DNA of 64,000 nt from positions 88,288 through 152,287 of the forward strand of contig JAHDKI010000017.1 of NCBI GenBank assembly GCA_018436925.1, written 5' to 3'. A program made the translations under genes and the position numbers. This DNA is from Syntrophaceae bacterium. Lineage in GTDB: Bacteria > Desulfobacterota > Syntrophia > Syntrophales > Smithellaceae. This document shows positions 11,185 to 52,020 of the stretch, piece by piece; position 1 is the stretch's first letter, and each line of letters starts with the position of its first letter. The notes beneath the pieces are model-generated. The model had not been told where the DNA came from. It saw only the letters and a program-made list of their open reading frames with translations, and did not search any database.

Positions 11185-12915
11185 TCAGCCCAGAATGTAT
11201 CCGCAGAAAACACCAAAACCCGCAATGATATAGCTTGTTTCCAGAAGACCTTCCAGAAGACCCCCCGAAAGCCCCGACCTTCTATCACAAAGTCGGAAAC
11301 AAATCCATAGATATAATAAACTGCCCAGGAGCAATACATTCAAGAAAGAAACGGGTCCGAAAGCCACGCTGATGAGCAAGATCGATAAAGCCGCTAAAAT
11401 AATCCCTTTGAGCATGCGCAGCGTGACGGTTTTGCCCAAGACCACGGGAATCGTTTCCCTGCCCAAAAGTTTGTCGGATTGCATTTCCAGAACATCCGAC
11501 AGGGCCGAACGGACAAAAACAAGAGAAAAAACAAAAGCAAAAGCCGCGGCCAGCGCGGGAGTGATCCAATGATCGCTGGAGAGCGCCGGACCGACTGCCG
11601 CAACCATTCCCCACGCGGTCGCCATGAAGAGATTCTTGGAGCCGGGGATATCCTTGAGTCGTTGAAAACGCCACCCGTTGGGCAAAAGTTTCATATTATA
11701 AAGAACACCGGCCAACGAAATCACAAATAAAAACATAAACATGATGACGCCAGTGTAAAGGGCGAGCCCCAGGGCGCAGGCCAGGGCGAAAACGGCCGCC
11801 GCCAAATAGTATTTTTCATAGCGCAGGTAGGTGGTTTCCCGAAAAGACCCCACATAGGCCGAGGCCTTGCGGCTGATGAGACGATTAATGACATGCATTC
11901 CGTAAACGAAAAGGGATGAAATGATTACAGATCTGAAATGAAAGGGAATTTTTTGCATCATCATCCCTGCAAGGGCCAGACAGCCGGCACCGAGCGCCGA
12001 GTATAGGTCGGTTTTGACCGACCAAAGCCAAAGCCGGAACAAGACGCCGACCTTCTTTATTTGACCGTTGTGCCGCTCGGCCAGCGTATCCATCACCCGG
12101 TCGATAATCCAGTTCGGTGTCGATGCGCCTGCTGAAACCCCGATGCGGTGGTAGGGTTTCAGATCGATGCTTTGGATTTCCTCCGCGGTTTCGATATGGA
12201 ACGTGGGGGTTCTCCGGCTTGCGGCCAGATCCGCGAGCCGGCAGGTGTTGGCGCTGTTTTTGCCGCCGACGACGAACAGAGCATCCATCTCCGAGGCCAA
12301 TTCAATGACTTCCGCCTGCCTTTTTTCCGTCGAAGAGCAGATGGTCTTAAAGATCACCGCCTGCGGACAGGATTTTTGAATTTTTTGAACAATTTGATTA
12401 TAGTTTTCAATATCCTGAGTGGTTTGCGCCACCACACAGACTTTATCCAGGCAGGGCAGTTCTTCGGCTTCCTTCAACGTCGAGATGACCTTGCCTTTTC
12501 CCCGGGTATATCCCAAAAGGCCGTCCACTTCAGGATGCGCGCGGTCCCCCACGATGATGACGGTGTAGTCCTGGGCGGCATGTTTTTTAATGATGCCCTG
12601 GACGTATCCCACCTTCGGACAGGTGGCGTCGAGAATTCGAATGCCGCTTTCCTTGATTTTTCTTCTTTCTTCCGGTGCGATTCCGTGCGCGCGGATGACC
12701 AGAACACTGTTTTGCGGGTTCTCAATTTCATCGATGCTTTTCACAGCCGTGATACCCCGACTCTTTAAAAGCTCGATCGTTTGCGGATTGTGAATCAGCG
12801 GGCCGTAGGTATAAATACGGCGTCCGGTTTCGTGCTGGGCCACTTCCAGCACGGCATCCACCGCGCGGCGGACACCCATGCAGAAGCCGGCGGTTTTCGC
12901 GAGTTTTATTTCCAT
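11185..12915 (-). CDS. ispH: 4-hydroxy-3-methylbut-2-enyl diphosphate reductase fused to a polytopic UbiA-like membrane domain
   Basis: The N-terminal ~300 aa is IspH/LytB, with the three cluster Cys in AGFCMGV, DATCPKV and KTICSST. The C-terminal ~280 aa is hydrophobic with ~8 predicted helices and contains DVLEMQSDKLLGRETIPVVLG. Start ATG 12915 shares one nt with the tlyA stop. Confidence 0.85.
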   Translation of the reverse strand: MEIKLAKTAGFCMGVRRAVDAVLEVAQHETGRRIYTYGPLIHNPQTIELLKSRGITAVKSIDEIENPQNSVLVIRAHGIAPEERRKIKESGIRILDATCPKVGYVQGIIKKHAAQDYTVIIVGDRAHPEVDGLLGYTRGKGKVISTLKEAEELPCLDKVCVVAQTTQDIENYNQIVQKIQKSCPQAVIFKTICSSTEKRQAEVIELASEMDALFVVGGKNSANTCRLADLAASRRTPTFHIETAEEIQSIDLKPYHRIGVSAGASTPNWIIDRVMDTLAERHNGQIKKVGVLFRLWLWSVKTDLYSALGAGCLALAGMMMQKIPFHFRSVIISSLFVYGMHVINRLISRKASAYVGSFRETTYLRYEKYYLAAAVFALACALGLALYTGVIMFMFLFVISLAGVLYNMKLLPNGWRFQRLKDIPGSKNLFMATAWGMVAAVGPALSSDHWITPALAAAFAFVFSLVFVRSALSDVLEMQSDKLLGRETIPVVLGKTVTLRMLKGIILAALSILLISVAFGPVSFLNVLLLGSLLYLWICFRLCDRRSGLSGGLLEGLLETSYIIAGFGVFCGYILG

Positions 12916-13673
12916 CAGGCATCCTTCGCTTTGGCCAGAATAAAAAATTCCCGGTTGCCGGCCGGCCCCGTAATCGGCGATTCGCACATTCCGATTGCGT
13001 CGAGGTTCACAGACGGGCAGACATCGCGGATTTCATCCATAACGCGCCGCTGCACGGATTCGTCGGAGATGACGCCGTCGGGACCGACTTCTTCTCGTCT
13101 GGCTTCAAACTGCGGTTTGATCAGCGCCAGGACAAGGCCGCCTCCGGCCAAAAGCGGCGCCACCGCCGGCAGAACGGTTTTGAGCGATATAAAGGAGACG
13201 TCAATGACCGCAAGCGAGGGCCGCTCGTCGAAATCCCGCCCGTCGTAGTGGCGGATATTCGTCCGTTCGATGACCACCACCCTTGGATCCTGCCGGATTT
13301 TCCAGGCCAGTTGTCCATAGCCGACATCGAGTGCGTAGACTTTCTTCGCACCCGCCTGAAGAAGGCAATCGGTGAAACCGCCGGTGGACGCGCCCACATC
13401 TATAACAACCCGGCCTTCGACGCCAAGCGCGAAATGATCCAATGCGCCGCGCAGCTTCAGGCCGCCGCGGCTGACATAAGGGGTGTCCGTGCCTTTGATG
13501 GCGATGTCGGCGTCAATGGGAACCTTCGCATCGGCCCGGTCCACAGATTCGCCTTCGATTTTGACGGAGCGCGCCAGAATAAGCGCCCGCGCTTTGTCCA
13601 CAGTCAAAGCAAGCCCGCGTTCCACAAGCAACTGATCCAAACGGATTTTCTTGATGCGTATTTTAATAGACAT
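12915..13673 (-). CDS. tlyA: TlyA family rRNA (cytidine-2'-O)-methyltransferase
   Basis: S4-like N-terminus RLDQLLVERGLA. SAM motif VIDVGASTGGFTD. Confidence 0.9.
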   Translation of the reverse strand: MSIKIRIKKIRLDQLLVERGLALTVDKARALILARSVKIEGESVDRADAKVPIDADIAIKGTDTPYVSRGGLKLRGALDHFALGVEGRVVIDVGASTGGFTDCLLQAGAKKVYALDVGYGQLAWKIRQDPRVVVIERTNIRHYDGRDFDERPSLAVIDVSFISLKTVLPAVAPLLAGGGLVLALIKPQFEARREEVGPDGVISDESVQRRVMDEIRDVCPSVNLDAIGMCESPITGPAGNREFFILAKAKDA

Positions 13674-15529: not shown

Positions 15530-17434
15530 TCAATCCTGCCCGCCTCCGGCCATGAGCGCTTTTAGCGCTTTAAAAATGCCTTCTTCATCCAGGCCGTACT
15601 GCGCGCGGAGTTCGGCCTGGGTGGCGTGTTCGATATATTCGTCCGGAATGCCCAGGCGCCGGATCATCACGCCGCTTTTGCCTTGATCGGCCAAAAGCTC
15701 GAGTACCGCGCCGCCGAAACCGCCCTGAAGAACGTTTTCCTCAACCGTGAGAACCCGGCCGGTTTGAGCCGCCCTGAGGATCAGCTCCGTGTCGAGGGGT
15801 TTGACATACCGGGCGTTGATGACGGAGACGGACAAACCTTCCTCGGCAAGCCTCCTTGCGGCGGCAAGCGCCGGATAGACCGTTACGCCCACGGCAAGAA
15901 TCGCTGCGTCGTTTCCGTCTTGCAAAACTTCACCTTTGCCGATGGGCAGAATCTTTAAGGTTTCGGAGCAATCGACGCCGAGGCCTTTTCCGCGCGGATA
16001 GCGAACGGCGACGGGGAAAGCGCTTTGGGCGGCCGTTTTGAGCATATGGCGCAGTTCGTTTTCGTCTTTGGGCGCCATGACGATCAGATTCGGCAAGGAA
16101 CGAAGATATGACAGATCGAAGATGCCCTGGTGCGTCGAGCCGTCTTCGCCCACGAATCCGGCCCGGTCGACGGCGAAAATCACGGGCAGATTCTGCAGGC
16201 AGACGTCGTGAGAAATCTGATCGTAGGCCCGCTGCAGGAAGGTGGAATAAATCGCCACAACCGGCCGCATGCCTTCAATCGCCAGGCCCGCCGCAAAGGT
16301 TACGGCGAGCTGTTCGGCGATGCCGACATCATACATGCGCTTGGGGAATTCCCGGGCGAAGAGATCCAGGCCGGTGCCTTCGGACATGGCTGCCGTAATG
16401 GCGACGACGCGGTCGTCCTGTTGGGCGAGTTCAATCAGCGTCCGGCCGAAGACCTGTGTGTAGGAGGGGATCGTTGACGTCGCCAGCGCTTTGCCCGTGT
16501 CCACGTCGAATGGCGCAATGCCGTGGTAGGTGGGCGAGTTCTCTTCGGCAAACTTGTAACCTTTGCCCTTTTGCGTGATCACGTGAACGAGGACGGGTCC
16601 GGGCAGATCGCGAACGTTTTCAAAATTTTTGATCAAATAGTCCAGTCGGTGGCCCTCCAGCGGACCGACATAGGTGAATCCCAGAGACTCAAACAGCGTT
16701 CCTGGAACGACCATGTTTTTGAGCGATTCTTCGAGCTGGCGCGACATTTTGAAAACCTGCTCGCCGATGCCCGGAATGCTTTTGAGAAAATTTTTCAGAT
16801 CGGTTTTGAGCCGGGTGACGGTGTGTCCCGTCATCAGCTGGTTTAAATGAGCCGACAGCGCCCCGACGTTAGGTGAGATCGACATTTCATTGTCGTTTAA
16901 AACGATGATCATGTCCTTTTTCCGGTCGCCCGACCAGTTCAGGCCTTCGAAGGCCATGCCGGTCGTCATCGAGCCGTCTCCGATAACGGCGATGGTTTTG
17001 TGCTTGTCGCCCGCAAGACAGGCCGCTTCCGCAAACCCCGCCGCAGCGGCGATAGAGGTGCCGCTGTGGCCGACGTTGAAGGTGTCGTAGATGCTCTCCG
17101 AGCGCTTGGGAAAACCGGAGAGGCCGCCTTTTTTGCGCAGCGTTGCAAATCGATCTTTGCGTCCCGTGACGATTTTGTGGGCGTAGGATTGGTGCCCCAC
17201 ATCCCAGATCAGCCGGTCGTCGGGCGTGTTGAAAACATAGTGCAAAGCCAGCGTCAGCTCGACGGTGCCCAGAGACGAGGCCAGGTGACCGCCTGAGGCG
17301 GCCACTGTCTGAATAATGAACGTCCGGATGTCCTGGGCCAGACGGTTGAGCTCCGGAAGCGTCAGCCGTCGGATGTCCGCCGGATCGTTCACAGCGGAGA
17401 GAACTTCATAATCGGCGATTTCGATTGGTTTCAT
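15530..17434 (-). CDS. dxs: 1-deoxy-D-xylulose-5-phosphate synthase
   Basis: LASSLGTVELTLALHYVF, GHSGTSI, and ThDP motif GDGSMTTGMAFEGLN. 634 aa. Confidence 0.95.
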   Translation of the reverse strand: MKPIEIADYEVLSAVNDPADIRRLTLPELNRLAQDIRTFIIQTVAASGGHLASSLGTVELTLALHYVFNTPDDRLIWDVGHQSYAHKIVTGRKDRFATLRKKGGLSGFPKRSESIYDTFNVGHSGTSIAAAAGFAEAACLAGDKHKTIAVIGDGSMTTGMAFEGLNWSGDRKKDMIIVLNDNEMSISPNVGALSAHLNQLMTGHTVTRLKTDLKNFLKSIPGIGEQVFKMSRQLEESLKNMVVPGTLFESLGFTYVGPLEGHRLDYLIKNFENVRDLPGPVLVHVITQKGKGYKFAEENSPTYHGIAPFDVDTGKALATSTIPSYTQVFGRTLIELAQQDDRVVAITAAMSEGTGLDLFAREFPKRMYDVGIAEQLAVTFAAGLAIEGMRPVVAIYSTFLQRAYDQISHDVCLQNLPVIFAVDRAGFVGEDGSTHQGIFDLSYLRSLPNLIVMAPKDENELRHMLKTAAQSAFPVAVRYPRGKGLGVDCSETLKILPIGKGEVLQDGNDAAILAVGVTVYPALAAARRLAEEGLSVSVINARYVKPLDTELILRAAQTGRVLTVEENVLQGGFGGAVLELLADQGKSGVMIRRLGIPDEYIEHATQAELRAQYGLDEEGIFKALKALMAGGGQD

Positions 17435-26194: not shown

Positions 26195-26217
26195 CAGATC
26201 AGATCGACCTTCTCAGT

Positions 26218-26261
26218 CCCGTCGGCTGAATCCTAAATAGGTTCAGCCGACGGGATTTTTT
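26218..26261 (+). terminator. rho-independent terminator after flotillin
   Basis: 13-bp perfect stem CCCGTCGGCTGAA / TTCAGCCGACGGG, an 11-nt loop, then ATTTTTT. Confidence 0.8.
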
Positions 26262-26399: not shown

Positions 26400-27725
26400 T
26401 CAGGCGCACAGTCGCCTGAGGATCTCGCGCGTCATAGCGATGCCGAAATGCAGATTGTCGATGGAGATGCGCTCGTCAATGCCGTGCACGCGTCCCATGT
26501 CGGATTTGTCCAGAATCATCGGTGTGAATCCATAGGCCGGATAGCCGCGCTCCCGCCAGTATCGTCCGTCGGTGGCGCCGGCCATCAGAAGCGGCAAGAC
26601 GCCCGCCCCGAAAGACAGGGCATGAACCGTCTCTTCAATCGCGCGATAAAACGCGCTGTCCGTCGGCGCGATGCCCGAAGGCGGCGAGCTTTGAATTTTC
26701 TCCAGCTGGATTCGCTTGTCGTTGATGCGCGACAGCAGCCAATTTTCAAATTCACCCGCGTCCGTTTCCGGAAGCAGACGGCAATCGAGTTCGGCGCAGG
26801 CGCGCTCCGGAATCACATTAATCTGATAGCCGGCCCGTACGATGTTAACGCTGACGGTGTCGCGCAGAAGCGCGTTTGTGAATTTGTCGGAGGACAGTTT
26901 TTTGCCGGCCAGGGCCAGCACAAGGGGGTTGGCCAAATGCTTGAGCAGCCAGGACGCGGGAAAGGGCTGCGCCGGCGCGATGGCGGAAAACATTTGCTTA
27001 GCGGCCCTGCCTGCTTTGAGCGGCCGGGGATCGGACACGATCCGTCCCAGCGCCGCAAGCAAGGTTTCCGAGGCGCTGTCTTTGTGCGGCATGGATCCGT
27101 GCCCCGGCGCGCCGGTTGCGGTGAGCCGGACCCGGTAAATCTGTTTTTCAGCCACGGCCACGGCAAAAAGAAGCGCGTCCCCAAAAACGCCCCGGTAGGC
27201 GCCTGTGCCTTCATCCCAAACCCATTCGGGATCGATATCGTTTAAATGTCGCTCCACCAGCCAGCGCATCCCGTGATCGCCGCCCGGCTCCTCGTCCGGC
27301 ACGGCGGTGAAGAGAATCGGACGGCGAAACCGGACGCCCTCTTTGAGCAGCGATTCCAGCGCGAACAAAAACATCACTCCCAGGCCTTTGGTGTCCAGCG
27401 CTCCCCGTCCCCAGACATAGCCGTCGGCGATGTGTCCGGCAAAGGGGGGATACGTCCATTTTGCAGGGTCGGCGGCAACGACATCGATATGGTGATTGAT
27501 CATGAGCGGCTTTAAGGGTTCGTGGCCGGCAATTCCGGCCACGACCAGTCCCCGCCCCGGCACAGGCTCATGGATTTGAATGTCGGAGGTGATGCCCCGG
27601 CCGGCCAATTGATCGGCCAACCACTTGGCGGCCGAAAGCTCATTTCCGGGCGGATTGGTCGTATCGAATTGAATGTAGCGGCTAAGGGCCAACGCCGGAT
27701 CGTCCGTCATGCTTTGATTTTTCAT
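26400..27725 (-). CDS. M20-family metallopeptidase / amidohydrolase (ArgE/DapE/ACY1-like)
   Basis: Metal-ligand motifs NHHIDVV, GRGALDTKG and VPDEEPGG. True start is MKNQSMTDD at 27725; the track's 110-codon extension overlaps the MFS gene. Confidence 0.85.
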   Translation of the reverse strand: MKNQSMTDDPALALSRYIQFDTTNPPGNELSAAKWLADQLAGRGITSDIQIHEPVPGRGLVVAGIAGHEPLKPLMINHHIDVVAADPAKWTYPPFAGHIADGYVWGRGALDTKGLGVMFLFALESLLKEGVRFRRPILFTAVPDEEPGGDHGMRWLVERHLNDIDPEWVWDEGTGAYRGVFGDALLFAVAVAEKQIYRVRLTATGAPGHGSMPHKDSASETLLAALGRIVSDPRPLKAGRAAKQMFSAIAPAQPFPASWLLKHLANPLVLALAGKKLSSDKFTNALLRDTVSVNIVRAGYQINVIPERACAELDCRLLPETDAGEFENWLLSRINDKRIQLEKIQSSPPSGIAPTDSAFYRAIEETVHALSFGAGVLPLLMAGATDGRYWRERGYPAYGFTPMILDKSDMGRVHGIDERISIDNLHFGIAMTREILRRLCA

Positions 27726-27753
27726 CGGTCCACCCTGAAATGTCGAAACGGTT

Positions 27754-29061
27754 TCATTCCTCCAGAATGGTTTCGTCCTTAACCTTCTGCAGATCCTGAG
27801 GATAGGTTCGGGAAGCCACAAAGAAAAGAACACCCGCCGCCACGCCGAAAAGACCGCAAAGCATGACGGCCGTGCCCAAACCGTCCGCGCCGCCGCCCAG
27901 CCAATCCGATAAAACGCCGACAGCGTAAGGTCCCCAGGCGCCGCCCAGCATGTATTGGGCGAAGATGGCCAGGCCCATGGACAGCCCCTTGTGGGCGACC
28001 GGAACGACATCCTGTGAAATCGCGGCGATCGCCGGCATGGCCATGGCCGCTGCAATGCCGTACAGACAGGCCAGGGCGATACCCACCGGGCTGAAACGGG
28101 TGAGAATAACGATCATCAGAAGCAGGCCGCCTGCGATATAGGCCACAACCGGCACATACATCCGGCCGCGCGGATTCTTTCTTTGCCAAAAGTCCGCAAG
28201 GAAGCCGCCGACCGGCGCGCCGATGATCGCCATGAGCCCGATGCCGCCGGTGATCAGACCGGCTGTGGCTTCAGAAATGTTCATCATCCGCATCATTAAG
28301 GAGGGCAGCCAGACCAATACAGAGGCGGTCATGAAAACGGCAATGCCCAGACCGAAATAATACCAGCGCATAGTGGGCAATTTTAAAACGCTGGTAAAGG
28401 CCGCAACGAACTGCCGGATGCCGCCGGTTGCGTGCGGGGCGTCGGCCGTTTTGTAATCTTTCATGAAGAAGGCCAGGATTCCCAGAAGCACACCCGGAAT
28501 GGCAAAGAATAAGAAAGGCGCCCGCCAGCCGTATTTGACGGATATCAGGCCGCCGAAGATGACGCCCGCGGCCGCGCCCAGCGGAATAGCCATATTGAAG
28601 ATACCCATGGCCCAACCGCGTTTTTCTTTGGGGTAGGAGGCACAGATGATGGCGGTTCCACCGGGCACAAATCCCGCTTCGCCCAATCCGACGAAGAACC
28701 TTGGAAACAAAACGCTCAAAAAGTTTCTGGCCATGCCTGTGGCAAAGGTTGCGGCGCTCCAGAAAAGCGCCATCAGCGAGATCGCCTTGCGCCGGCTCCA
28801 GCGGTCCACCAGATAGGACACCGGAAAAGAAAAAAAGGCCATGCCGACAATGAGCACCGTTGAGGCAAGACCGCATTGCGCATCCGTCAGCCCCAGGTCG
28901 ATTTTCATTGGCTGCAAAATCACCGAAAAGACCTGCCGATCCATGTAATTGACGATGTACAGCAGCGTGCAGACGATCAGCGTATAGTGGGCGCGCCACC
29001 CGGCGGTTTTATCGTTTCCCGCCGTCCGGGGCGCTTTCTGCGAAGGGTTGGAGTGAGCCAT
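27754..29061 (-). CDS. MFS transporter (anion:cation symporter / phthalate-permease-like)
   Basis: About 12 hydrophobic helices and MFS motif A in LVDRWSRRKA. Confidence 0.9.
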   Translation of the reverse strand: MAHSNPSQKAPRTAGNDKTAGWRAHYTLIVCTLLYIVNYMDRQVFSVILQPMKIDLGLTDAQCGLASTVLIVGMAFFSFPVSYLVDRWSRRKAISLMALFWSAATFATGMARNFLSVLFPRFFVGLGEAGFVPGGTAIICASYPKEKRGWAMGIFNMAIPLGAAAGVIFGGLISVKYGWRAPFLFFAIPGVLLGILAFFMKDYKTADAPHATGGIRQFVAAFTSVLKLPTMRWYYFGLGIAVFMTASVLVWLPSLMMRMMNISEATAGLITGGIGLMAIIGAPVGGFLADFWQRKNPRGRMYVPVVAYIAGGLLLMIVILTRFSPVGIALACLYGIAAAMAMPAIAAISQDVVPVAHKGLSMGLAIFAQYMLGGAWGPYAVGVLSDWLGGGADGLGTAVMLCGLFGVAAGVLFFVASRTYPQDLQKVKDETILEE

Positions 29062-29087
29062 CGTGTCGGTCTTTCTGAAAAAGTCTT

Positions 29088-29873
29088 TTATGTTTCGGTT
29101 TCCGCCGCCCAGAGCGCGGCGCCGTAAGCGGCAGTCAATCTGGGTTTTTCGGGAACGAATATTTTCACCTTCAGTGTCTCGCCGATGGCGCGGGCAAGGC
29201 CTTCATCCTCGCCGCCGCCGCCCGCAAGCACCACATCCGGCTCCATTTTGAGGCGTTTGACGAGCATGCCGACTTTTGCCGCCATCGCCTTGTGAACGCC
29301 CGCCAGAATGTCGGCGGGCTTTGCGCCTTCGGCAATGCGGGAGATGGTTTCCGATTCGGCGAACACGGCGCAATTGGTGGAAAATTCCACGGGATGTTCC
29401 GACTGTATCGACAGCGGTCCGATTTCATCAAGCGGCACATGCAGAATCCGGGAAATGACCTGCAAAAAACGTCCCGACCCGGTGGCGCACTTTTCGCTCA
29501 TTAAAAAGTCGGCAATCCGTCCCGGGGGCGAAATTCTTGCCGCCTTGGTGAATTGTCCGCCGATGTCGATGATCGTCCTCGCGGAAGGAAAAAGAAAGAA
29601 ACAGCCTCTTGCCTGGCAGGAAATGTCGGAGACCTGGCGGCCGGGAAAAGGCGAGCTCTCCGCGCCCAGACCGGTTGCGACCAGGCCGGCAAGCGAGCCG
29701 AAGTCGATGCCGGCCTGCGCCAGAACATCCTGCATCACTTTTTGCGCGCCGGCTTTGTAATGTCCGCCGGAGGGGATAAGAGAAGACGCGATGATCCGTT
29801 CGCCGCGAATCAAAACCGCCTTGATGGACACAGACCCCATATCGAGTCCGGCGTAATATTTGTCGTCATTCAT
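29088..29873 (-). CDS. BadF/BadG/BcrA/BcrD-type ATPase subunit of a benzoyl-CoA-reductase-like enzyme
   Basis: ASKHA phosphate-1 loop GLDMGSVSIKAV. [4Fe-4S]-bridging Cys pair in MSEKCATGSGRF and TNCAVFAESE. Start may be ATG 29873 or TTG 29885. Confidence 0.8.
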   Translation of the reverse strand: MNDDKYYAGLDMGSVSIKAVLIRGERIIASSLIPSGGHYKAGAQKVMQDVLAQAGIDFGSLAGLVATGLGAESSPFPGRQVSDISCQARGCFFLFPSARTIIDIGGQFTKAARISPPGRIADFLMSEKCATGSGRFLQVISRILHVPLDEIGPLSIQSEHPVEFSTNCAVFAESETISRIAEGAKPADILAGVHKAMAAKVGMLVKRLKMEPDVVLAGGGGEDEGLARAIGETLKVKIFVPEKPRLTAAYGAALWAAETET

Positions 29874-29894
29874 GTCGGAATCCAAAAGGCTTCT

Positions 29895-30725
29895 CTAAGT
29901 GAAAAAAGTCACGTCCTCTTTTTTGCGTTCTTTGGCCGGTCGAACACCGCGGTCGTAAAAATCCTTTCCGACGAGCGCCGCGCCCAGCGCGCCGGTAATA
30001 AACGGCTCGGGCGGCGTGAGGACGTCAAAACCCACCTTGCCGGCAATCGCCTTGATCAATCCTTTATTTTTCGCGCCGCCGCCTGTCACCACGACATCTT
30101 TCTCAATGCCCAGATGCCGCGTCATGTTCACGACGCGCGAGGCGATGGCTTCATGAAGCCCCGCGACGATTTGCGCCACGTCCGCGCCTTCGGCAAGCCT
30201 TGATGTGACTTCATGCTCGGCAAACACCGTGCACATGCTGGAAATCTGAACAAAGCCGTCGGCCCGGGACGCGATGTCGCCCATATCGACCAGGTTGATG
30301 CCCAGCGTTTCGGCGATGACTTCGAGAAACCGGCCGGTTCCCGCCGCGCATTTGTCATTCATGACGAAGTTGGCGACTTTGCCGTCGGCGTCGAGCTTGA
30401 TGCCTTTGGAATCCTGTCCGCCGATATCGATGATGATTTTCGCGGAGGGGAACAAGGCGCGGATGCCGCGCGCGTGGCAGGTGATTTCGGTAATCTGCTT
30501 GTCGGCAAACGGAACGTTGATGCGTCCGTAGCCGGTGGCGACGATAAACCGGAGTTGGTCGATGGACAACCCCGCTTGGGAAAGCGTTTCATCCATCACG
30601 GCCAGCGCCAGATGCCGGTGCTCCGCGCCGGTGGGCCCGATGTGCGAAGCGAGTATTTGTTCTTTTTCATCGGCGATGACGACTTTCGTCATCGTGGAGC
30701 CGATATCGATTCCGCCAAACGGCAT
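29895..30725 (-). CDS. second, distinct BadF/BadG/BcrA/BcrD-type ATPase subunit
   Basis: GIDIGSTMTKVV, MNDKCAAGTGRF and SMCTVFAEHE. Confidence 0.85.
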   Translation of the reverse strand: MPFGGIDIGSTMTKVVIADEKEQILASHIGPTGAEHRHLALAVMDETLSQAGLSIDQLRFIVATGYGRINVPFADKQITEITCHARGIRALFPSAKIIIDIGGQDSKGIKLDADGKVANFVMNDKCAAGTGRFLEVIAETLGINLVDMGDIASRADGFVQISSMCTVFAEHEVTSRLAEGADVAQIVAGLHEAIASRVVNMTRHLGIEKDVVVTGGGAKNKGLIKAIAGKVGFDVLTPPEPFITGALGAALVGKDFYDRGVRPAKERKKEDVTFFT

Positions 30726-30751
30726 AAAACACCTTCGGTGTGTTAGGGGTG

Positions 30752-30779
30752 AGGCGTCAGGAGTCAGGCGTCAGGCGTT
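30752..30779. repeat. four tandem heptamers inside the intercistronic gap
   Basis: AGGCGTC AGGAGTC AGGCGTC AGGCGTT read directly from the plus strand. Confidence 0.7.
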
Positions 30780-30814
30780 TCTAGTCCTGACGTTTTGCGC
30801 TTGACTCTTTGCGC

Positions 30815-32131
30815 CTAACGCCTCCCGCTCCTGGCCTGAAGCGCTTCGATAAACGCGCCGATTTGCGCCTTCCACTGCGCTTCCGAATAATCCCGCAGAT
30901 CCACCATATCGGAGACGAGCTGCATCATCGGCAGATCGCAGTATTTCCCCAGCTCGCTTTTGATATGCGTCTGGCCGATGGTGGTCGCGCGGCAGGACCG
31001 GCAGGCGTGAAACACCACGCCGTCGATTTGATAGTCCTCGATCATGCCCAGCAGTTTTTCCACGGTGGGATTGCCGCTGCGCGCCCGGGCTTTTTCATGG
31101 TAGGCCGTGTAGCGCAAAAACGCGCGCCAGGCCAGATAATCGACCGGGTCTTTGACGTGCGAAGGCACTTCGACCGGATCGAATCCGCGATAGACGTTTT
31201 CGATCACAAACACCGCGCCGAAACTTTCAAAGTAATTGAAGATCCACAGCGTATGCCACGGCGGAAGTCCGCCGCCGTAAAGAATGCGGTATTTTTCGTC
31301 CGGGATCACGCCGATTTTGTGATCGACTTTATACTTCACTTCGTCATAGAGCTTCTGATAGAAGTCCACGGCGATCTGGGTGCCGGCATAGTAGTGGCCC
31401 GCCACCATGATGCTGAAGTGATCCTGCGACGGCATGGGGGAAGGAACCGCCACGCGCAGACGGTCGATGTCGTACCATAGCTGCCAGGCTTTGTCGCCCA
31501 AACGGATGCACTCCCAGAGGCGTTCCTTGTCCAGTTTCTTTCCGGTTTGCGCCTCCAGAAAGTCGATCAGTCCCTGCACCTGGTCGCGTTGATATTGAAT
31601 GTAGTAGTCCCGGACTTCGTTCAAATCGTCCTGAGGCGGCGGCGCGACGACATCCATGCCGAATGTGGGCACATCAAGATAGCGGCTCGCGGCCTGATAC
31701 CACTTGAAACGCGGATCGCACACCGCCGAAGAGCCCAGCATCATGTCGGGGGCGGGCATGCCGCCGTCCGGCGAGTTGTCGGGAATGCGCCCCAGCTCCT
31801 TGCGCAGGCTGTCGAATCCCAGGCCGATGCGGGCATAGCTGCACAGCACTTGCGAGTAGCCGTCCGCTTCCGCCTTGAGCAGGAAGCGATCCATATCGCG
31901 CTTGGCGGCGCAAAGCCCGGCGTAGTTTTCCGTGGGCAGCGGAATGACGTCCATCGCTCGGATGACCTCGTCATATTGCGAGGCCACCATGAAGTAGGCC
32001 ACTTTTTTGCCGTTGGCCTTGGCCTCATGCGCGCTTTTATAGATGTTCTTGACCAGCGCGCGCACCTCGCGCGCCGTGTCCGTCCCCTTGACGGCCGTGG
32101 TTTTGGCCTGCTGTGTGGATTCCATTTTCAT
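30815..32131 (-). CDS. benzoyl-CoA reductase B/O-type subunit-like protein (2-hydroxyacyl-CoA dehydratase fold)
   Basis: 438 aa. Family-level resemblance to BcrB/BadE/BzdO (KKVAYFMVASQYDEVIRAMDVIPL..., FHACRSCRATTIGQ). Confidence 0.75.
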   Translation of the reverse strand: MKMESTQQAKTTAVKGTDTAREVRALVKNIYKSAHEAKANGKKVAYFMVASQYDEVIRAMDVIPLPTENYAGLCAAKRDMDRFLLKAEADGYSQVLCSYARIGLGFDSLRKELGRIPDNSPDGGMPAPDMMLGSSAVCDPRFKWYQAASRYLDVPTFGMDVVAPPPQDDLNEVRDYYIQYQRDQVQGLIDFLEAQTGKKLDKERLWECIRLGDKAWQLWYDIDRLRVAVPSPMPSQDHFSIMVAGHYYAGTQIAVDFYQKLYDEVKYKVDHKIGVIPDEKYRILYGGGLPPWHTLWIFNYFESFGAVFVIENVYRGFDPVEVPSHVKDPVDYLAWRAFLRYTAYHEKARARSGNPTVEKLLGMIEDYQIDGVVFHACRSCRATTIGQTHIKSELGKYCDLPMMQLVSDMVDLRDYSEAQWKAQIGAFIEALQARSGRR

Positions 32132-32135
32132 CTCC

Positions 32136-33275
32136 CTACAAAATCATTTCCAGAAACGCTTGAATGCGCGTTCTGAGCTGTCCCATCGTCGATGTGGAGT
32201 AGTCGTCCTCGATCATTAAGACCGGCAGCTTCAGGCCGTTTAGATAGTCCTTCAGGTCCGGTCCTTCGAGCTCGCAGGTGTCGCAGTAGCGGACAATGTA
32301 GAAAATCGCTCCGTCGGCTTTCCAGTCCGCCATGAACTGCCGGATATAGCCGAAGCGGTTTTCCAGATCGGTCTGACGATCGCCCGCCTGGGGTTTAAGG
32401 GTTCGCGGACAGTGCGTGCAGATATAGCGCCGTGCCAGCGCCTCCAGCGGATCACCCGTTTCCGGGACATCTTCCCAGAAAAACCGCGATCCCGTGCACA
32501 GATCATCCATCACGACATGCGCGCCGCACTCTTCGACCAGTTGAATAAAGGCGGCATCGTCAATTTCGTTGCCCCAGATAAAGATGCGCGGCAGACCGTC
32601 GGGGTTCGGCGCCGGCCGGTTTTTCACCTCCTGAATAAAAGCCGAGACAAGCTCAATATGCTCGTCGGCGGGAATGCCCATTCCGGCCACCAACACTTTG
32701 GTGATTTCCGTTCCCGAGACGCGCGGCGGATTTTCTTTTCTCAGAGCATAAAGCTCGCGAAGCAGCTCCCGGCGTCGGTTGTACAGCGAGACGGCATCGC
32801 GAAGTTTGGCCGGGTCCATTTTCCTGCCGGAAAAGTCTTCCAGCCGCTTGATGAAGTATTCCAGCTCTTTGCGGTAAAACGCGTCGGATGACGGTCCCAG
32901 CATGTGCGGAACATTGATCATATGATTAAACGGCGACGGTTTGTTCTGATGCCAGATATGGTACATCCGCTCGATTGTGTCGCAGCTGTGCGGCGCGACA
33001 AAGCCGTCCAGAAAATCATACTCGCCCTTGAGCGCGAGGTTAAAGCAGCTGCGGGCAAACGGACAGGCCATCGGCTCCAAAAGCGCGTCCGCCTCGTCGA
33101 TGGGGTCGTTTTGCGACCCCTGGATGCGGTAGGGAAGCATATCCATTGCCGTGATAATTTCGTCGGGGACAAAGCAGCAGAAATACCCGATGACTTTTTT
33201 CCCCGATTCGCGCAATTTGCGGGCGCGCTCTCCCCGATTCTGATAAAGGCCGTCGATTTTATCCAAGACGCTCAT
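32136..33275 (-). CDS. benzoyl-CoA reductase C/N-type subunit-like protein (2-hydroxyacyl-CoA dehydratase fold)
   Basis: 379 aa. KKVIGYFCCFVPDEIITAMDMLPYRI, HSCDTIERM, YIVRYCDTCE. Confidence 0.75.
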   Translation of the reverse strand: MSVLDKIDGLYQNRGERARKLRESGKKVIGYFCCFVPDEIITAMDMLPYRIQGSQNDPIDEADALLEPMACPFARSCFNLALKGEYDFLDGFVAPHSCDTIERMYHIWHQNKPSPFNHMINVPHMLGPSSDAFYRKELEYFIKRLEDFSGRKMDPAKLRDAVSLYNRRRELLRELYALRKENPPRVSGTEITKVLVAGMGIPADEHIELVSAFIQEVKNRPAPNPDGLPRIFIWGNEIDDAAFIQLVEECGAHVVMDDLCTGSRFFWEDVPETGDPLEALARRYICTHCPRTLKPQAGDRQTDLENRFGYIRQFMADWKADGAIFYIVRYCDTCELEGPDLKDYLNGLKLPVLMIEDDYSTSTMGQLRTRIQAFLEMIL

Positions 33276-33302
33276 GATTGTGCCCCGCTTTCCGGTTTTT
33301 TG

Positions 33303-33325
33303 CGTATATCATGCTCAGATATACG
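33303..33325. promoter_or_regulatory. perfect 8-bp inverted repeat (candidate operator) in the divergent control region
   Basis: CGTATATC-N7-GATATACG. It overlaps a possible minus-strand promoter (TTGCTT at 33347-33342, an 18-nt spacer, then TATATC at 33323-33318). Confidence 0.45.
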
Positions 33326-33409
33326 GGCAAAGACGCTCGAAAAGCAAGCGGGTTTTTCTTTAAAACGTCTTGCCTTGATGAACGAAAGGCGAAATGATAT
33401 GGTCCGCGC

Positions 33410-34198
33410 ATGAAAAAGACGATCATTCAAATTTACGAAATTCAAAAACCGAAAGAAGCCGAAGCGCTTGCCGCGGCCGGCGTTGATCATATCGGCAGCG
33501 TGCTTCTGGATACCGACAAGCGGAAGAACGCCGCGATCCGCAAAACCGTTTTGGCGGCCCGGCAAGCCGGAGCCAAAAGCGGCGTGATTCCGTTGTTTAA
33601 CGATCCGGCCCGGATTTTCGCTGCGCTGGAGTATTACGAACCGGATTTTGTGCACCTTTGCGATACGCTTGCCCCCTACCCCGACCGCCGGAAGGCGGTG
33701 GTGCGCGATTTCGACGCGTTTTTGTCTTTGCAAATCGACATTAAAGACCGTTTTCCGCGGATTGAAATCATGCGGTCCCTGTCCGTGCCCCGGCCCGGCC
33801 GTCCGGATCGGCAGGAGGTTGAAAAGATCCTGCTGGATTTTGCCGAACGCTTCTCGCCTTTTTCCGATTACTTTCTTCTGGACACGCTGCTCGACGGCGA
33901 CGCTCAGCCTGTTGACGGTTTCGTCGGCGTCACGGGGGAAACCTGCGATTGGGAAATGGCCAAAAGCGTGATCGAAAAAAGCCGCATTCCCGTGATTCTG
34001 GCGGGAGGTCTCTCGCCGGAAAATGTCTTTGAAGCCATCACCGCCGTGCGTCCGGCCGGCGTGGACAGCTGCACGAAAACCAACGCCGTGGATCCATCGG
34101 GACAACCCGTGAGGTTTAAAAAGGATATGAAGAGAGTCGAAAAGTTCATCGCGGAAGTCCGCCGCGGTGATGCCTTTTTTTCCGGAGTCGCCTCTTGA
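33410..34198 (+). CDS. phosphoribosylanthranilate-isomerase (TrpF)-like TIM-barrel protein, atypically long, not in a trp context
   Basis: GVTGETCDWEMAK...PVILAGGLSPENV...AGVDSCTKTN...KDMKRVEKFI resembles the TrpF C-terminal half. 262 aa. Confidence 0.6.
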   Translation: MKKTIIQIYEIQKPKEAEALAAAGVDHIGSVLLDTDKRKNAAIRKTVLAARQAGAKSGVIPLFNDPARIFAALEYYEPDFVHLCDTLAPYPDRRKAVVRDFDAFLSLQIDIKDRFPRIEIMRSLSVPRPGRPDRQEVEKILLDFAERFSPFSDYFLLDTLLDGDAQPVDGFVGVTGETCDWEMAKSVIEKSRIPVILAGGLSPENVFEAITAVRPAGVDSCTKTNAVDPSGQPVRFKKDMKRVEKFIAEVRRGDAFFSGVAS

Positions 34199-34530
34199 CG
34201 CCGTCGAAAGCCTTTCAGAGAGAAGCCCAAACGCTTGACGCGATGATCGCGCTGTACTGCCGCGGACGCCATTCCATGCCGGAAGGAGAGCTTTGCTATT
34301 CCTGCCGCGAACTTCTAACGTACGCGCTATCGCGGCTGGACAAGTGCCCTTTCGGAGACAACAAACCCGCCTGCTCGGCCTGCCCCGTGCATTGCTACAA
34401 ACCGGCGCGCCGTAAGGACATCCAGGAGGTCATGCGTTACTCAGGCCCCCGGATGATGCGTTCGCACCCGCTTTTGGCCATTCGTCATCTTTTAAAAAAA
34501 CTGAAAACGTCCAAGGTGGAAACACCATGA
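34195..34530 (+). CDS. YgbA / nitrous-oxide-stimulated-promoter family Cys-rich protein
   Basis: REAQTLDAMIALYC...CPFGDNKPACSACPVHCYKPARRKDIQEVMRYSGPRMMRSHPLLAIRHL is near-colinear with my recollection of E. coli YgbA. The TTG start overlaps the upstream TGA (TTGA). Confidence 0.8.
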   Translation: MTPSKAFQREAQTLDAMIALYCRGRHSMPEGELCYSCRELLTYALSRLDKCPFGDNKPACSACPVHCYKPARRKDIQEVMRYSGPRMMRSHPLLAIRHLLKKLKTSKVETP

Positions 34531-35642
34531 AGATCGCGATTATCGGAGCGGGTCCGGCCGGACTTTATGCGGCGCTTGCCGCGGCGGAGAAAGGAATGAC
34601 CGCGGACCTTTATGAAAAACGTCGGGTCGGAGAGGGCATTGTTTGCGGCGAGTGCATCTTCGACTCGCTTCGACTTATGAAAAAACCCGGCGTCGGCCTT
34701 TTGCGCCCTGTGGATGAAATCATTCTTCAGGGCAGGAAACCCTATCCGTTCAGCCTCTCCCGCCACCGTCCGCTGTGGATGCTCGACCGCAAAACCTGGC
34801 AGCGGGATCTCGCGCGGCGGGCGGTTGACAAAGGGGTTTCGCTCTTCGAGCGCTGTAAAATAACGTCCGATCGCTTGCGGAGCATGCACAACGAGTATGC
34901 ATGGATCATCGACGCCAGCGGCGCGCCGTCGGTGACGTCAAGGCATTATGGCTTTGCCGCCGAGTACTTCAAAGATTTTCTTGTGGCCCATCAGGTTGTC
35001 CTCGCAGGCGATTTCAGCGCTCTCTGGCCGCGGATCAAGGTCGCTTTTTTCGAAGCCTGGCCTTCGTCAAACCAGCCCGCTTATTACTGGGTTTTCCCCA
35101 AGGATGAAAAGACCGCCAATGTCGGCGTGGTCTGCGCTGCGCGAAAACGCCTGGATCAAAAAACGGTCAACTTAAAACGCCGGCTTTCCGAGGTGCTCAA
35201 GCGTGAAGGGTTGACGGAGACGGCCGTTTTGGAGACGGGCGGCGGGATTGCCGCCGGACGGGTTCTGCCGCGCCTGGTTTATGGCAACATTCTGCTTTGC
35301 GGAGACGCGGCGGGGCTGACCTCGCCGTTGCACGGCGGCGGGATCGATCTGGCGTGTTTAAGCGGCGTCTTAGCCGTCGAGGCCGTGCGGACGGGCGGTT
35401 CGGGCGTCGCGGCCTATGAAAAAACCGTCAAGGGGTACCTGCGGGAGCGAACGGCGCTGGAAGGCGTCACGATCGGCAAAATGCGTCGAATGACCTTCAA
35501 GCAATTCGACCGGCTCTTGGCCGGCGTGACCGCCAAAAGCCGACGGACTCGTTTGATCACTGGTTTAAAGAATCTCGATATGCTCCTTACCACGCTTCAA
35601 TGGTTCGGCACGACAAAGAAAAGTCTCGACTGGCCGGATTGA
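34527..35642 (+). CDS. FAD-dependent oxidoreductase, geranylgeranyl-reductase-like
   Basis: MKIAIIGAGPAGLYAALAAAEKG dinucleotide fold and CGDAAGLTSPLHGGGI. ATGA overlap with the upstream gene. Confidence 0.8.
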   Translation: MKIAIIGAGPAGLYAALAAAEKGMTADLYEKRRVGEGIVCGECIFDSLRLMKKPGVGLLRPVDEIILQGRKPYPFSLSRHRPLWMLDRKTWQRDLARRAVDKGVSLFERCKITSDRLRSMHNEYAWIIDASGAPSVTSRHYGFAAEYFKDFLVAHQVVLAGDFSALWPRIKVAFFEAWPSSNQPAYYWVFPKDEKTANVGVVCAARKRLDQKTVNLKRRLSEVLKREGLTETAVLETGGGIAAGRVLPRLVYGNILLCGDAAGLTSPLHGGGIDLACLSGVLAVEAVRTGGSGVAAYEKTVKGYLRERTALEGVTIGKMRRMTFKQFDRLLAGVTAKSRRTRLITGLKNLDMLLTTLQWFGTTKKSLDWPD

Positions 35643-47130: not shown

Positions 47131-48369
47131 TCAGGGCGCTCCCTCCCAGCCTGCGATTCTGGCCCACAGCCACCAGGCGGCGCGCCCTTTAAGAACACAA
47201 TTGAGCTTCGCCTGCGAGGGGCTGTCCGAGTGAGCACAACTGCTGCAATAGGTGTTGGTTAGCGTCGTCAGGATATGACCGGGGTTGGCATTGATCCACT
47301 CGGTGGCCCAGTTGCCGCCTGAATACGCACAATTTTCGTCGCCGTTGAGCATCATGAAATTGGTGGCGCCCACCGGGTCGAAACTTTCAATGTCGGCAAA
47401 ATCGAAAAGTATTTTGTTGTGGGTTCGGCAATAGGCTCGAATCTGTTCGTTGCGCAGATTGACGCTGCCTGCGGCCCCGCCCCCGTTGAGGTGGCCGGTC
47501 ATATAAACGAATCTGACATTCGGATAATCGTTTTCCAGCGCATTCATCAAATCGAGATAGGTCTGGATTTCAGCTTCGGTGCCGCCCACCTGTCCGCACC
47601 AGGACCACATGATGACATTAATCGTCGGATGGGCGGCCAGATAGGATCGCGTGGCCGTCGCCCAAGCCGTCCGGTCGGGATTTCCCAAATCGGAAGCGCC
47701 GGAAAAGGGTGTGTCGTGCAGCGAAAGCGCGCCCCCCGAGCCGCTACTATTGTAGGTGTAAAGGCTGTCGAAGGTGGCCAGTGCCGCCATTCCGGTTATC
47801 AACTGGCTTCCGTGGGACGTATGGCCATAGGCAATACGCAGGCCTGACTTGGCGGCGGCAATAGACGCGGCGGGGATGGAGGGAAAAGCCGCCGCCGCCA
47901 GATGATCCGCGATGATGGCCCCGGTCGGAGCGGGGGCTTCGCTGACGGTCACAATATATTGTTTTGTAGACTCGTCTTCAGCTGTAACCGTATAGGTCAC
48001 CGGGCCGGTAAAATCGTTGGCCGTGACACCGCTGGTCTGAATCAGGGAATCGACCGTCACGGACTCTCCCGTTGCGGTAAAGGTGGCAATCAGCGCGGAA
48101 CGGCCGGCGCCGTTGGGGACGGTTGCGAAAATATTTGTTCCTGCGATCGTTGCGACCACATCTTCAGACAGGTCGTTGTTGACGGCCTCTCGAAACGAAA
48201 AAGCGGTGATGTCTTTGTCGGAATCGGAAGGAAGGTTGGGCAGCGCCGCCAGGTTTGAATCGGAACCGCCCGAACAGGCTGCGATAAAAAGATAAAAAGC
48301 GATGAGCAGGACGGATCGGCGGCTGTTTGGCGCAATCCATTTCACGGCGGAAAGAAACATTCTGAACAT
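47131..48369 (-). CDS. lipoprotein of unknown function (Ig/cadherin-like N-domain plus uncharacterised C-domain)
   Basis: AAAGGAG RBS before ATG 48369 and lipobox IAAC. N-domain DITAFSF...FTGPVTYTVTAEDESTKQYIVTV. C-domain motifs YGHTSHGSQ, MWSWCGQ and YMTGHLNGGG are not recognised. Confidence 0.55.
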   Translation of the reverse strand: MFRMFLSAVKWIAPNSRRSVLLIAFYLFIAACSGGSDSNLAALPNLPSDSDKDITAFSFREAVNNDLSEDVVATIAGTNIFATVPNGAGRSALIATFTATGESVTVDSLIQTSGVTANDFTGPVTYTVTAEDESTKQYIVTVSEAPAPTGAIIADHLAAAAFPSIPAASIAAAKSGLRIAYGHTSHGSQLITGMAALATFDSLYTYNSSGSGGALSLHDTPFSGASDLGNPDRTAWATATRSYLAAHPTINVIMWSWCGQVGGTEAEIQTYLDLMNALENDYPNVRFVYMTGHLNGGGAAGSVNLRNEQIRAYCRTHNKILFDFADIESFDPVGATNFMMLNGDENCAYSGGNWATEWINANPGHILTTLTNTYCSSCAHSDSPSQAKLNCVLKGRAAWWLWARIAGWEGAP

Positions 48370-51981: not shown

Positions 51982-52020
51982 AACGTCTCCTTTCGTTGCG
52001 AAATCATAGCCAGGCGCGTA

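Follow-up and report, generated by a model that had tools for sequence, protein, structure and literature searches.

The window, by which we mean the whole 64,000-nt stretch of contig JAHDKI010000017.1 (assembly GCA_018436925.1) from a bacterium of the Smithellaceae, carries six consecutive minus-strand genes which, in the open reading frame (ORF) reading, fill positions 26400 to 33275. They encode two large subunits of the superfamily that comprises benzoyl-CoA reductases (BCRs) and 2-hydroxyacyl-CoA dehydratases (HADs), here called N-like and O-like, two different ATPases (A1 and A2), an MFS permease and an M20 amidohydrolase (Table 1). The first four genes form a conserved core, which is predicted from its sequence to specify a two-component, ATP-driven iron-sulfur radical enzyme of a separate and uncharacterized lineage within this BCR/HAD superfamily.

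Table 1. Genes and predicted signals of the operon (window coordinates).
Feature	Position	Strand	Description
N-like subunit	32136-33275	-	379 aa; PF06050 (HGD-D), E 1.4e-98, 331 bits
O-like subunit	30815-32131	-	438 aa; PF06050 (HGD-D), E 5.6e-58
ATPase A1	29895-30725	-	276 aa; PF01869 (BcrAD_BadFG), E 1.4e-62, 212 bits
ATPase A2	29088-29873	-	261 aa from ATG (JGI gene call); PF01869, E 6e-48, 164 bits
ATPase A2, alternative start TTG at 29885	29088-29885	-	265 aa
MFS permease	27754-29061	-	435 aa; PF07690, 204 bits; anion:cation-symporter (D-galactonate/ACS) type
M20 amidohydrolase	26400-27725	-	441 aa; PF01546 and PF07687
Divergent intergenic region with likely operon promoter	33276-33409	-	134 nt; predicted from sequence
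O-A1 spacer	30726-30814	-	89 nt; hairpin CGTCAGG-N10-CCTGACG (30792-30769)
Hairpin, 18-bp stem and T-run	26215-26257		common to the convergent M20 and flotillin genes

The genes are separated, from the N-like to the M20 gene, by 4, 89, 21 (9 if A2 is read from TTG), 26 and 28 nt. Gaps of 26-28 nt had been given in a first-pass annotation, which took the gene set for that of an aryl-CoA reductase, and this figure is correct for the last two junctions (A2 to MFS and MFS to M20). A longer M20 ORF of 551 aa, which reaches 28055 and overlaps the 3' end of the MFS gene, was rejected as a mechanical artefact, the true start being the ATG at 27725. Identical proteins in the same six-gene order are found on three independent JGI metagenome contigs, and the order recurs in at least nine Smithellaceae genomes, which excludes an assembly accident. 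The nearest genomes are metagenome-assembled genomes (MAGs) of Smithellaceae/Smithella with O-like identities of 90-95%.

The conservation of the core was followed in 148 related loci, namely a genome set of 68 species-level loci (O-like at least 74% identical, all from Thermodesulfobacteriota MAGs) and a metagenome set of 80 loci, 41 of them close and 39 distant. The N-O-A1-A2 core occurs in about 50 of the 68 genome loci and is present wherever the flank allows, except in L019, L020 and L052, while the two ATPases are adjacent in 23 of the 30 close metagenome loci that span 6 kb or more. None of the six window proteins reaches an equivalog cut-off of NCBIfam, and no paper describing the present gene set was found in the literature; a report on Geobacter Gmet_0544 (PMC1924859) concerns a lone ATPase and was set aside as unrelated.

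Iron-Sulfur Sites of the Two Large Subunits

The N-like subunit carries a predicted double-cubane [8Fe-9S] site of six cysteines (C33, C71, C98, C260, C289 and C331). In a residue alignment to the solved chains, all six align with the ligands of the double-cubane cluster protein (DCCP) and of BzdN, which binds its [8Fe-9S] double cubane through six cysteines (PMC11971306). Conservation is 100% across 45 family members, and five distant relatives also retain all six. Among solved structures the six-cysteine signature is found only in BzdN and DCCP, whereas MbdN lacks three of the six and HadC two (the equivalents of C33 and C260), the HadC site holding only a [4Fe-5S] cluster (PMC11971306). The top PDB match of the N-like subunit is BzdN (8s02_B, E 4.5e-55) and its best NCBIfam match is double_cubane (NF040772), with 241 bits against a cut-off of 350; it scores 183 bits against the BzdN model TIGR03190 (cut-off 454) and 179 against the HadC model (cut-off 700).

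A DCCP-like enzyme has also to be considered, which would reduce a small molecule rather than a CoA ester and in which the O-like protein would be merely a structural partner. DCCP and its reductase DCCP-R (PDB 6ENO, 7YYL; PMC7317905) share with the present system the six ligating cysteines and an ATP-dependent partner reductase, and double_cubane is the best family match. This match stays below its cut-off, however, and the seventh, non-ligand cysteine that belongs to the DCCP motif (PMC7317905) is missing from the N-like subunit, which has a Gly in this column, as in BzdN. Furthermore, DCCP is a seven-cysteine homodimer served by a homodimeric reductase and has no known CoA substrate, whereas the N-like gene is obligately paired with the O-like gene, the O-like protein has an invariant active-site signature of its own, and the genes around the pair overwhelmingly encode CoA-ester enzymes. 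Such a reductase is consequently regarded as highly improbable.

This O-like signature consists of a predicted three-cysteine [4Fe-4S] site (C97, C138 and C380) together with Glu68 and Tyr99, all invariant in 54 of 54 sequences. In BzdO, Cys95, Cys128 and Cys380 bind an aqua-[4Fe-4S] cluster, with Glu65 and His131 as catalytic residues (PMC11971306). The three cysteines and the Glu do not discriminate a Bzd-type reductase from a HAD, because HadB shares both. The position of His131, by contrast, is occupied in the O-like subunits by an equally invariant Arg141 (54 of 54), where HadB has Val, a small hydrophobic residue, and MbdO has Phe. The comparison of the benzoyl site covered His131, Gln274 and Leu383, the BzdO sequence being partial and Trp46, Tyr298 and Leu302 lying outside the alignment; Gln274 is replaced by Gly or Leu, depending on the alignment, and Leu383 by Thr, and neither position is conserved among the O-like proteins. 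It is tempting to speculate that Arg141, placed at the cluster, might serve a further group, polar or anionic, of the substrate's acyl moiety.

Overall similarity places the O-like subunit nearer to BzdO (131 bits) than to HadB (103 bits) or MbdO (96 bits) among PDB chains, and far below the cut-offs of both the HadB model (159 vs. 750 bits) and the BzdO model TIGR03191 (153 vs. 449 bits). Its AlphaFold model (pLDDT 91) was compared with the PDB by Foldseek, which returned template-modeling scores of 0.84 for BzdO, 0.82 for MbdO and 0.80-0.81 for HadB and, within this narrow range, failed to separate reductase from dehydratase.

An Asymmetric Pair of ATPases

A1 shows the canonical ASKHA motifs DIGST, TGYGR, DIGGQD and GGGAKN (consensus over 36 orthologues), the cysteine pair that holds the cluster and a conserved basic C-terminal tail, and it exceeds the cut-off of TIGR00241 (268 vs. 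125 bits). In A2, by contrast, DxGSV, TGLGA, DIGGQF and GGGGED, conserved over 40 orthologues, replace DxGST, TGYGR, DIGGQD and GGVAxN, while the cysteine pair is retained. The motifs quoted earlier around these cysteines, KCAAGTGRF/SMCTVF in A1 and KCATGSGRF/TNCAVF in A2, were found as described. The two proteins are 41-44% identical to each other, with the cluster-bridging cysteines in both, and we infer that they form a heterodimer which would bridge a single [4Fe-4S] cluster. The asymmetry is also present in locus L079, the O-like protein of which is 49% identical, and a genuine class I reductase offers a counterpart, its MbdP being likewise diverged (DIGGQT, GGIMRW). The best PDB match is the HAD activator HadI for A1 (240 bits, followed by MbdQ with 225 and HgdC with 204) as well as for A2 (214 bits, followed by MbdQ with 195). 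TIGR03192, the third of the curated Bzd-type models, gives 178 bits with a cut-off of 380.

Placement in the BCR/HAD Superfamily

A HMMER search of 1.84 billion cluster representatives yielded 1569 relatives, and more than 150 clusters at 50% identity outscore the levels of BzdO (131 bits) or HadB (103 bits). In a neighbor-joining tree of 147 sequences (HgdAB, FldBC, LcdAB and tetrahydronaphthoyl-CoA reductase were not included), the window family, its Chloroflexota relatives and the remaining radiation of the Arg141 type form one clade, which excludes BzdO, HadB and MbdO in 60 of 60 bootstraps; the Kimura distances to these references are 1.51, 1.82 and 1.94, respectively. A position of the large subunit outside the known clades, which the first-pass annotation had proposed to examine by phylogeny, was thus found for these three. 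With scores below the cut-offs, a separate clade and nearly equal fold matches, the enzyme is best described as a member of the BCR/HAD superfamily outside every characterized family.

The relation to the known systems is one of partial resemblance in each case. BzdNOPQ of Azoarcus/Aromatoleum (PDB 8S02; PMC11971306) has the same four-gene layout of N, O and two different ATPases of about 270 aa, the six-cysteine [8Fe-9S] site in N and equivalents of the three-cysteine [4Fe-4S] site, Glu65 and Tyr97 in O, and it is the nearest solved match by sequence and fold. The present enzyme differs from it in having Arg141 for His131, in not keeping Gln274 and Leu383, in an identity of only about 25%, in equivalog scores that reach 34-47% of the cut-offs, in its separate clade and strictly anaerobic hosts, and in that benzoyl-CoA pathway neighbors are not seen around it. 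With HadBC/HadI, FldBC/FldI and HgdAB/HgdC (PDB 3O3M, 4EHT, 1HUX) it shares the three-cysteine [4Fe-4S] site and conserved Glu of the alpha subunit, HadI as the top match of both ATPases, and a gene company in which relatives of the clade stand beside genes of the FldA/HadA-type CoA-transferase, FldH/LdhA-type dehydrogenase, 2-oxoacid:ferredoxin oxidoreductase (OFOR) and enoate-reductase types. Unlike HadC, which binds its [4Fe-5S] cluster through three cysteines, the present beta subunit has six of double-cubane type; in place of the single homodimeric activator of HADs, two different ATPases are encoded, one of them degenerate in its motifs; and HadB, with its small hydrophobic residue in place of Arg141, falls into a separate clade. 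MbdONPQ/BcrCBAD of the Thauera type (PDB 9G87, 9GAI) is likewise a heterotetramer with one canonical (MbdQ-like) and one diverged (MbdP-like) ATPase, but MbdN is without three of the six cysteines, MbdO has Phe at the Arg141 position, and it is the most distant of the references.

The description of two catalytic-fold subunits and two non-identical ATPases with a cluster cysteine pair, given in the first-pass annotation, holds and is strengthened by the six-cysteine signature. Its assignment as an aryl-CoA reductase is not upheld, in view of the exchange of His131 for Arg, the scores of the Bzd, Bcr and Had equivalog models far under their cut-offs and the neighbors of 2-hydroxyacyl-CoA type.

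Genomic Context and the Probable Reaction

A very uniform gene neighborhood is seen in a sister group of relatives with O-like identities of 47-63%, which are Chloroflexota or Dehalococcoidia where named and keep the six-cysteine N subunit and the Arg. Of the 22 metagenome loci in this group (47-62% identity) that span 6 kb or more, 14 contain a family-III CoA-transferase (CoA_transf_3), 12 a D-isomer 2-hydroxyacid dehydrogenase (2-Hacid_dh) and 12 a multi-subunit OFOR, at least one of the three being present in 17. Individual gene orders are CoA-transferase, N, O, 2-Hacid_dh (L005); N, O, VorB-like OFOR, 2-Hacid_dh, ferredoxin, NMO (L078); ferredoxin and OFOR divergent from N-O (L080); ferredoxin, OFOR, CoA-transferase, N, O and a B12-dependent acyl-CoA mutase (L074); enoyl-CoA hydratase, N, O, ATPase (L076); and a thiamine pyrophosphate (TPP) enzyme of the acetolactate-synthase/2-hydroxyacyl-CoA-lyase type, CoA-transferase, N, O, A1, A2 (L079). 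This company resembles that of the Fld/Had genes of the clostridial Stickland pathways, which comprises FldH/LdhA, FldA/HadA, FldBC/HadBC, FldZ and the POR/VOR oxidative branch (reviewed in PMC11574389).

In three loci of Chloroflexota-type relatives, the genes next to N-O encode a B12-dependent acyl-CoA mutase or TPP enzymes (L074, 11587-13650; L079, 1324-3261; L083, 24-1244). The TPP enzymes resemble 2-hydroxyacyl-CoA lyase or oxalyl-CoA decarboxylase, and L079 adds to its family-III CoA-transferase a formyltransferase-domain gene; these neighbors hint at a metabolism of short 2-hydroxyacyl-CoA or formyl-CoA compounds.

In the close group, an AMP-forming (AMP-binding) acyl-CoA ligase lies directly upstream of the core in about 14 loci, a Frc/YfdW-like family-III CoA-transferase directly downstream in L009, L055, L052, L114 and L119, and an Fe-S flavoenzyme with Oxidored_FMN and Pyr_redox_2 domains (BaiCD/FadH/enoate-reductase type) directly upstream in five loci. 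Other recurrent partners are LutA/LutB, short-chain dehydrogenases/reductases and Liv-type ABC components including binding proteins. The crotonase family, to which dienoyl-CoA hydratase and ring hydrolase belong, is represented next to the core in only 2 of the 41 close and 3 of the 39 distant metagenome loci, and a benzoyl-CoA pathway gene set is not among the recurring neighbors of the 148 loci. The absence of the usual partners from the operon, remarked upon in the first-pass annotation, extends to the window, which is without a dienoyl-CoA hydratase, a ring hydrolase and a dedicated ferredoxin.

Three Smithellaceae genomes contain two cores each (L009/L011 in OY820932.1, L006/L055 in CAXXVL010000002.1, and L008/L056). 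One copy is accompanied by MFS-M20 and the other by a sigma-54 activator, an acyl-CoA ligase, a Liv-type binding protein and a family-III CoA-transferase.

The reading that we favor, with about an even chance of being correct, is that of an ATP-activated enzyme of the 2-hydroxyacyl-CoA dehydratase type equipped with Bzd-like hardware, and the reaction is probably not the dearomatization of an aryl-CoA. The highest scores of both ATPases, those against HadI, are counted in its favor. According to this model, reduced ferredoxin would load the [4Fe-4S] cluster that bridges the A1/A2 heterodimer, in which A1 would be catalytic and A2 a structurally retained partner with probably impaired ATP hydrolysis. 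The hydrolysis of ATP would push an electron into the N-like double cubane, from where it would move to the three-cysteine [4Fe-4S] cluster of the O-like subunit, and a CoA thioester would be converted beside Glu68 and Arg141. The substrate would most likely be an aliphatic (R)-2-hydroxyacyl-CoA or a related alpha-substituted acyl-CoA, dehydrated via a ketyl radical to the enoyl-CoA.

Several points weigh against this reading. Two different ATPase subunits are the pattern of class I BCRs and, to our knowledge, occur in no characterized HAD. BzdO is the nearest solved relative of the O-like subunit, ahead of HadB in bit score, Kimura distance and Foldseek rank (131 vs. 103 bits; 1.51 vs. 1.82). 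The HAD-type neighbors concentrate in the sister group, so that the function would be transferred across about 50% identity: 2-Hacid_dh is found in 1 of 30 and OFOR in 0 of 30 loci of the close group, an ATPase is adjacent in only 1 of the 22 sister loci, and no CoA-transferase, ligase or 2-hydroxyacid dehydrogenase lies next to the operon in the window. The reference set of the tree was restricted, as given above, to the exclusion of several characterized dehydratases. Finally, a double cubane in a defined catabolic enzyme has been described only for BzdN (PMC11971306), which makes the hardware look like that of a reductase.

Nevertheless, the retention of the double cubane does not fix the type of reaction, because MbdN lacks it and the cluster is regarded as ancestral to the superfamily (PMC11971306). 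As the cubane is dispensable for ring reduction, the His is replaced, crotonase-family genes are rare, an aromatic-pathway gene set is not seen among the recurring neighbors and the hosts are energy-limited, the pathway context is considered to outweigh the hardware. With regard to the hosts, class I BCRs belong typically to facultative anaerobes, and class II enzymes to strict anaerobes that gain little ATP (PMC11971306). The hosts of the present enzyme are obligately anaerobic, energy-limited syntrophs, for which a stoichiometric use of ATP of the class I type would be atypical.

The same hardware would suit, in line with the first-pass annotation, a Bzd-type, stoichiometrically ATP-dependent two-electron reductase of a CoA ester other than benzoyl-CoA, such as a substituted aryl, alicyclic, dienoyl or heteroaromatic one, in which electrons would gather on the double cubane, for which a storage of two electrons is proposed in BzdN (PMC11971306), and be delivered at the O-subunit cluster. 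The six-cysteine signature shared with BzdN, the resemblance to MbdPQ of a heterodimeric ATPase in which one partner is diverged, and BzdN and BzdO as best solved matches all agree with such an enzyme. In addition, the ferredoxin and OFOR genes beside N/O in relatives could donate electrons stoichiometrically, for which the surroundings of the Thauera bcr genes with their ferredoxin/OFOR electron donor offer a comparison, and the old yellow enzyme (OYE)-type reductase adjacent in five loci recalls the naphthoyl-CoA pathway. We consider this reductase unlikely, however. The catalytic His131 is an invariant Arg and neither Gln274 nor Leu383 is conserved, TIGR03190, TIGR03191 and TIGR03192 remain far under their cut-offs, and BzdO is excluded from the clade in all bootstraps. 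Crotonase-family genes are as rare as noted above and the benzoyl-CoA gene set does not recur, ring reduction has no use for the D-2-hydroxyacid dehydrogenase encoded in 12 of the 22 sister loci, and the hosts are energy-limited syntrophs.

A hybrid of the two reactions can also be envisaged, namely an ATP-driven reductive alpha-dehydroxylation in which the ketyl radical would expel the 2-hydroxyl group in the manner of HADs and the resulting enoxy radical would take up a second electron from the cubane, so that the saturated acyl-CoA is formed directly. It would reconcile the 2-hydroxy-acid context with a two-electron storage cluster and the stoichiometric-looking ATPase pair within the operon, and OFOR and ferredoxin beside N/O would provide the electrons. 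Such a reaction is without precedent, however, and would waste ATP relative to a HAD combined with the Bcd/Etf route. Moreover, separate enoyl reductases (NMO and the OYE/enoate-reductase type) adjoin several members, which suggests that an enoyl product is released. We thus hold this hybrid to be improbable.

It is rather improbable that the lineage represents a third functional type of the BCR/HAD superfamily, in which a double cubane and a heterodimeric ATPase act on an aliphatic 2-hydroxyacyl-CoA. Such an enzyme may be an ATP-driven reductive alpha-dehydroxylase, or it may be the missing radical enzyme of a syntroph pathway. Candidates for the latter are the lactoyl-CoA/acryloyl-CoA step in the speculative "lactate pathway" of propionate oxidation and a step of the enzymatically unassigned propionate dismutation of Smithella (PMC8892533).

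The [8Fe-9S] double cubane was first found in a defined catabolic enzyme in 2025, in BzdNO, with a proposed role in two-electron accumulation for Birch-type ring reduction. In the lineage described here, the cluster signature of the Bzd type and a heterodimeric ATPase in the style of BCRs meet a pathway context that is typical of redox-neutral 2-hydroxyacyl-CoA dehydratases. It is large and widespread, with its closest members in Smithellaceae, other syntrophs abundant in digesters and Chloroflexota, and with hundreds of 50%-identity clusters around it. A characterized member would tell whether the cubane and the two-subunit ATPase mark two-electron reductases or represent ancestral hardware that does not depend on the reaction type. 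At present, members are routinely annotated as "benzoyl-CoA reductase subunit" or "phenyllactyl-CoA dehydratase", and such labels can be misleading where they are used to deduce aromatic degradation from metagenomes.

The MFS-M20 Module

The MFS permease has TIGR00893 as its best subfamily (145 bits, under the cut-off). The M20 protein contains all M20A motifs for metal binding and catalysis, with the pattern His/Asp/Glu-Glu/Asp-or-Glu/His (HHIDVV, GRGALDTKG, PDEEPGG, WDEGTG and VHGIDE) and the dimerization domain PF07687; it is predicted to be cytoplasmic, a signal peptide not being evident, and its nearest solved structure is aminoacylase-1 (68 bits). The two genes join the core only in the Smithellaceae subclade (O-like at least 87-88% identical), where the linkage, as asked in the first-pass annotation, is not unique to the window genome and occurs in the nine or more Smithellaceae genomes noted above. 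M20 stands directly beside MFS in L007, L011 and L015-L018. One to three inserted genes separate the two in L006, L008 and L010, and in L060 no M20 gene lies within 10 kb. A deletion in L084-L086 has removed N, O, A1 and the 5' half of A2 but left MFS (77% identical) and M20 (68% identical) intact, and enzyme-less MFS-M20 pairs occur on 14 contigs in all, including the genome GCA_003152715.1. The pair is thus a separable module which the enzyme does not require. A 134-aa remnant of A2 (residues 112-245) is still present at 5180-5581 of L084, and also in L085 and L086, directly upstream of MFS and M20, and genes of an ADP-forming acyl-CoA synthetase, NMO and thiolase lie nearby in these loci.

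It had been suggested earlier that an imported N-acyl or aryl conjugate is de-conjugated by the M20 enzyme before reduction. In its more general form, a functional coupling would mean that an imported anionic N-acyl amino acid or other conjugate is hydrolyzed, and that the product is CoA-activated elsewhere and channeled to the enzyme. The short A2-MFS and MFS-M20 gaps (26 and 28 nt), the lack of a terminator ahead of 26257, the preservation of N-O-A1-A2-MFS(-M20) in these Smithellaceae genomes and several metagenome contigs, the intact M20 active-site motifs and the lack of an evident signal peptide would all be in line with it. Against it stand the absence of the linkage outside Smithellaceae, the displacement or loss of M20 in L006, L008, L010 and L060, the persistence of MFS and M20 after the deletion in L084-L086, and the paralogous cores in the same genomes, the partners of which are a ligase, a binding protein and a CoA-transferase (L009 vs. 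L011). We therefore regard the coupling as doubtful. The de-conjugation idea is weakened by the same observations. As the linkage is lineage-restricted, interruptible and separable, a scheme of import, de-conjugation and reduction would at most be a local adaptation of Smithellaceae rather than something inherent to the enzyme. The MFS-M20 pair may nevertheless be a source of an amino acid or hydroxy acid precursor.

Transcription Signals

The intergenic region upstream of the N-like gene contains a putative promoter with the elements TTGCTT (33347-33342) and TATATC (33323-33318), separated by an 18-nt spacer. In an alignment of 17 Smithellaceae upstream regions, a conserved CTTG(C/A) is found about 17 nt before a CAATAAT-like block, elements that look sigma-70-like. 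No sigma-54 promoter (GG-N10-GC) was detected by eye in the 134 nt upstream of the operon, and sigma-54 activators flank the paralogous loci. At the other end, the hairpin shared with the convergent flotillin gene is likely a bidirectional terminator, and a scan for consensus promoters and terminators inside the operon gave hits at chance level only. MFS and M20 are probably co-transcribed with the enzyme core in Smithellaceae, since the genes are closely spaced and have a single terminator and, ahead of N, only one conserved putative promoter of the sigma-70-like kind.

Two further elements were observed. A perfect 7-bp inverted repeat, GTATATC-N7-GATATAC (33304-33324), overlaps the putative -10 element and may be an operator; it shows no obvious conservation among the other Smithellaceae upstream regions. 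In the spacer between O and A1, the length of which varies across orthologous loci, the hairpin is followed by three reiterations of (G/T)CCTGAC (GCCTGAC/TCCTGAC) and lacks a T-run; a role in processing or attenuation is conceivable.

Other Genes of the Window

The other genes of the window have housekeeping functions (MetRS, Dxs, IspH, XseA, two-component systems) and give no clue to the pathway; the one acyl-CoA dehydrogenase gene lies 23 kb from the operon. Two long ORFs, at 52004-53914 (minus strand, 636 aa) and 47131-48450 (minus strand, 439 aa), are without a match in Pfam at E<=1e-8. A divergent trio on the plus strand (33410-35642) encodes a PRAI/TrpF-like protein of 262 aa, a Cys-rich YgbA_NO protein of 111 aa and a flavoprotein of 371 aa that resembles geranylgeranyl reductase. 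These three genes form a conserved group which is found beside the core throughout the Smithellaceae subclade and is absent elsewhere. The PRAI/TrpF-like protein, with 61 vs. 215 bits, stays far under every TrpF cut-off. A 600-aa ORF at 11185-12987 (minus strand) combines a complete LytB/IspH domain (302 bits) with a UbiA-type prenyltransferase domain, an unusual fusion of the last enzyme of the methylerythritol phosphate (MEP) pathway with a prenyltransferase, and Dxs is encoded nearby at 15530-17434.

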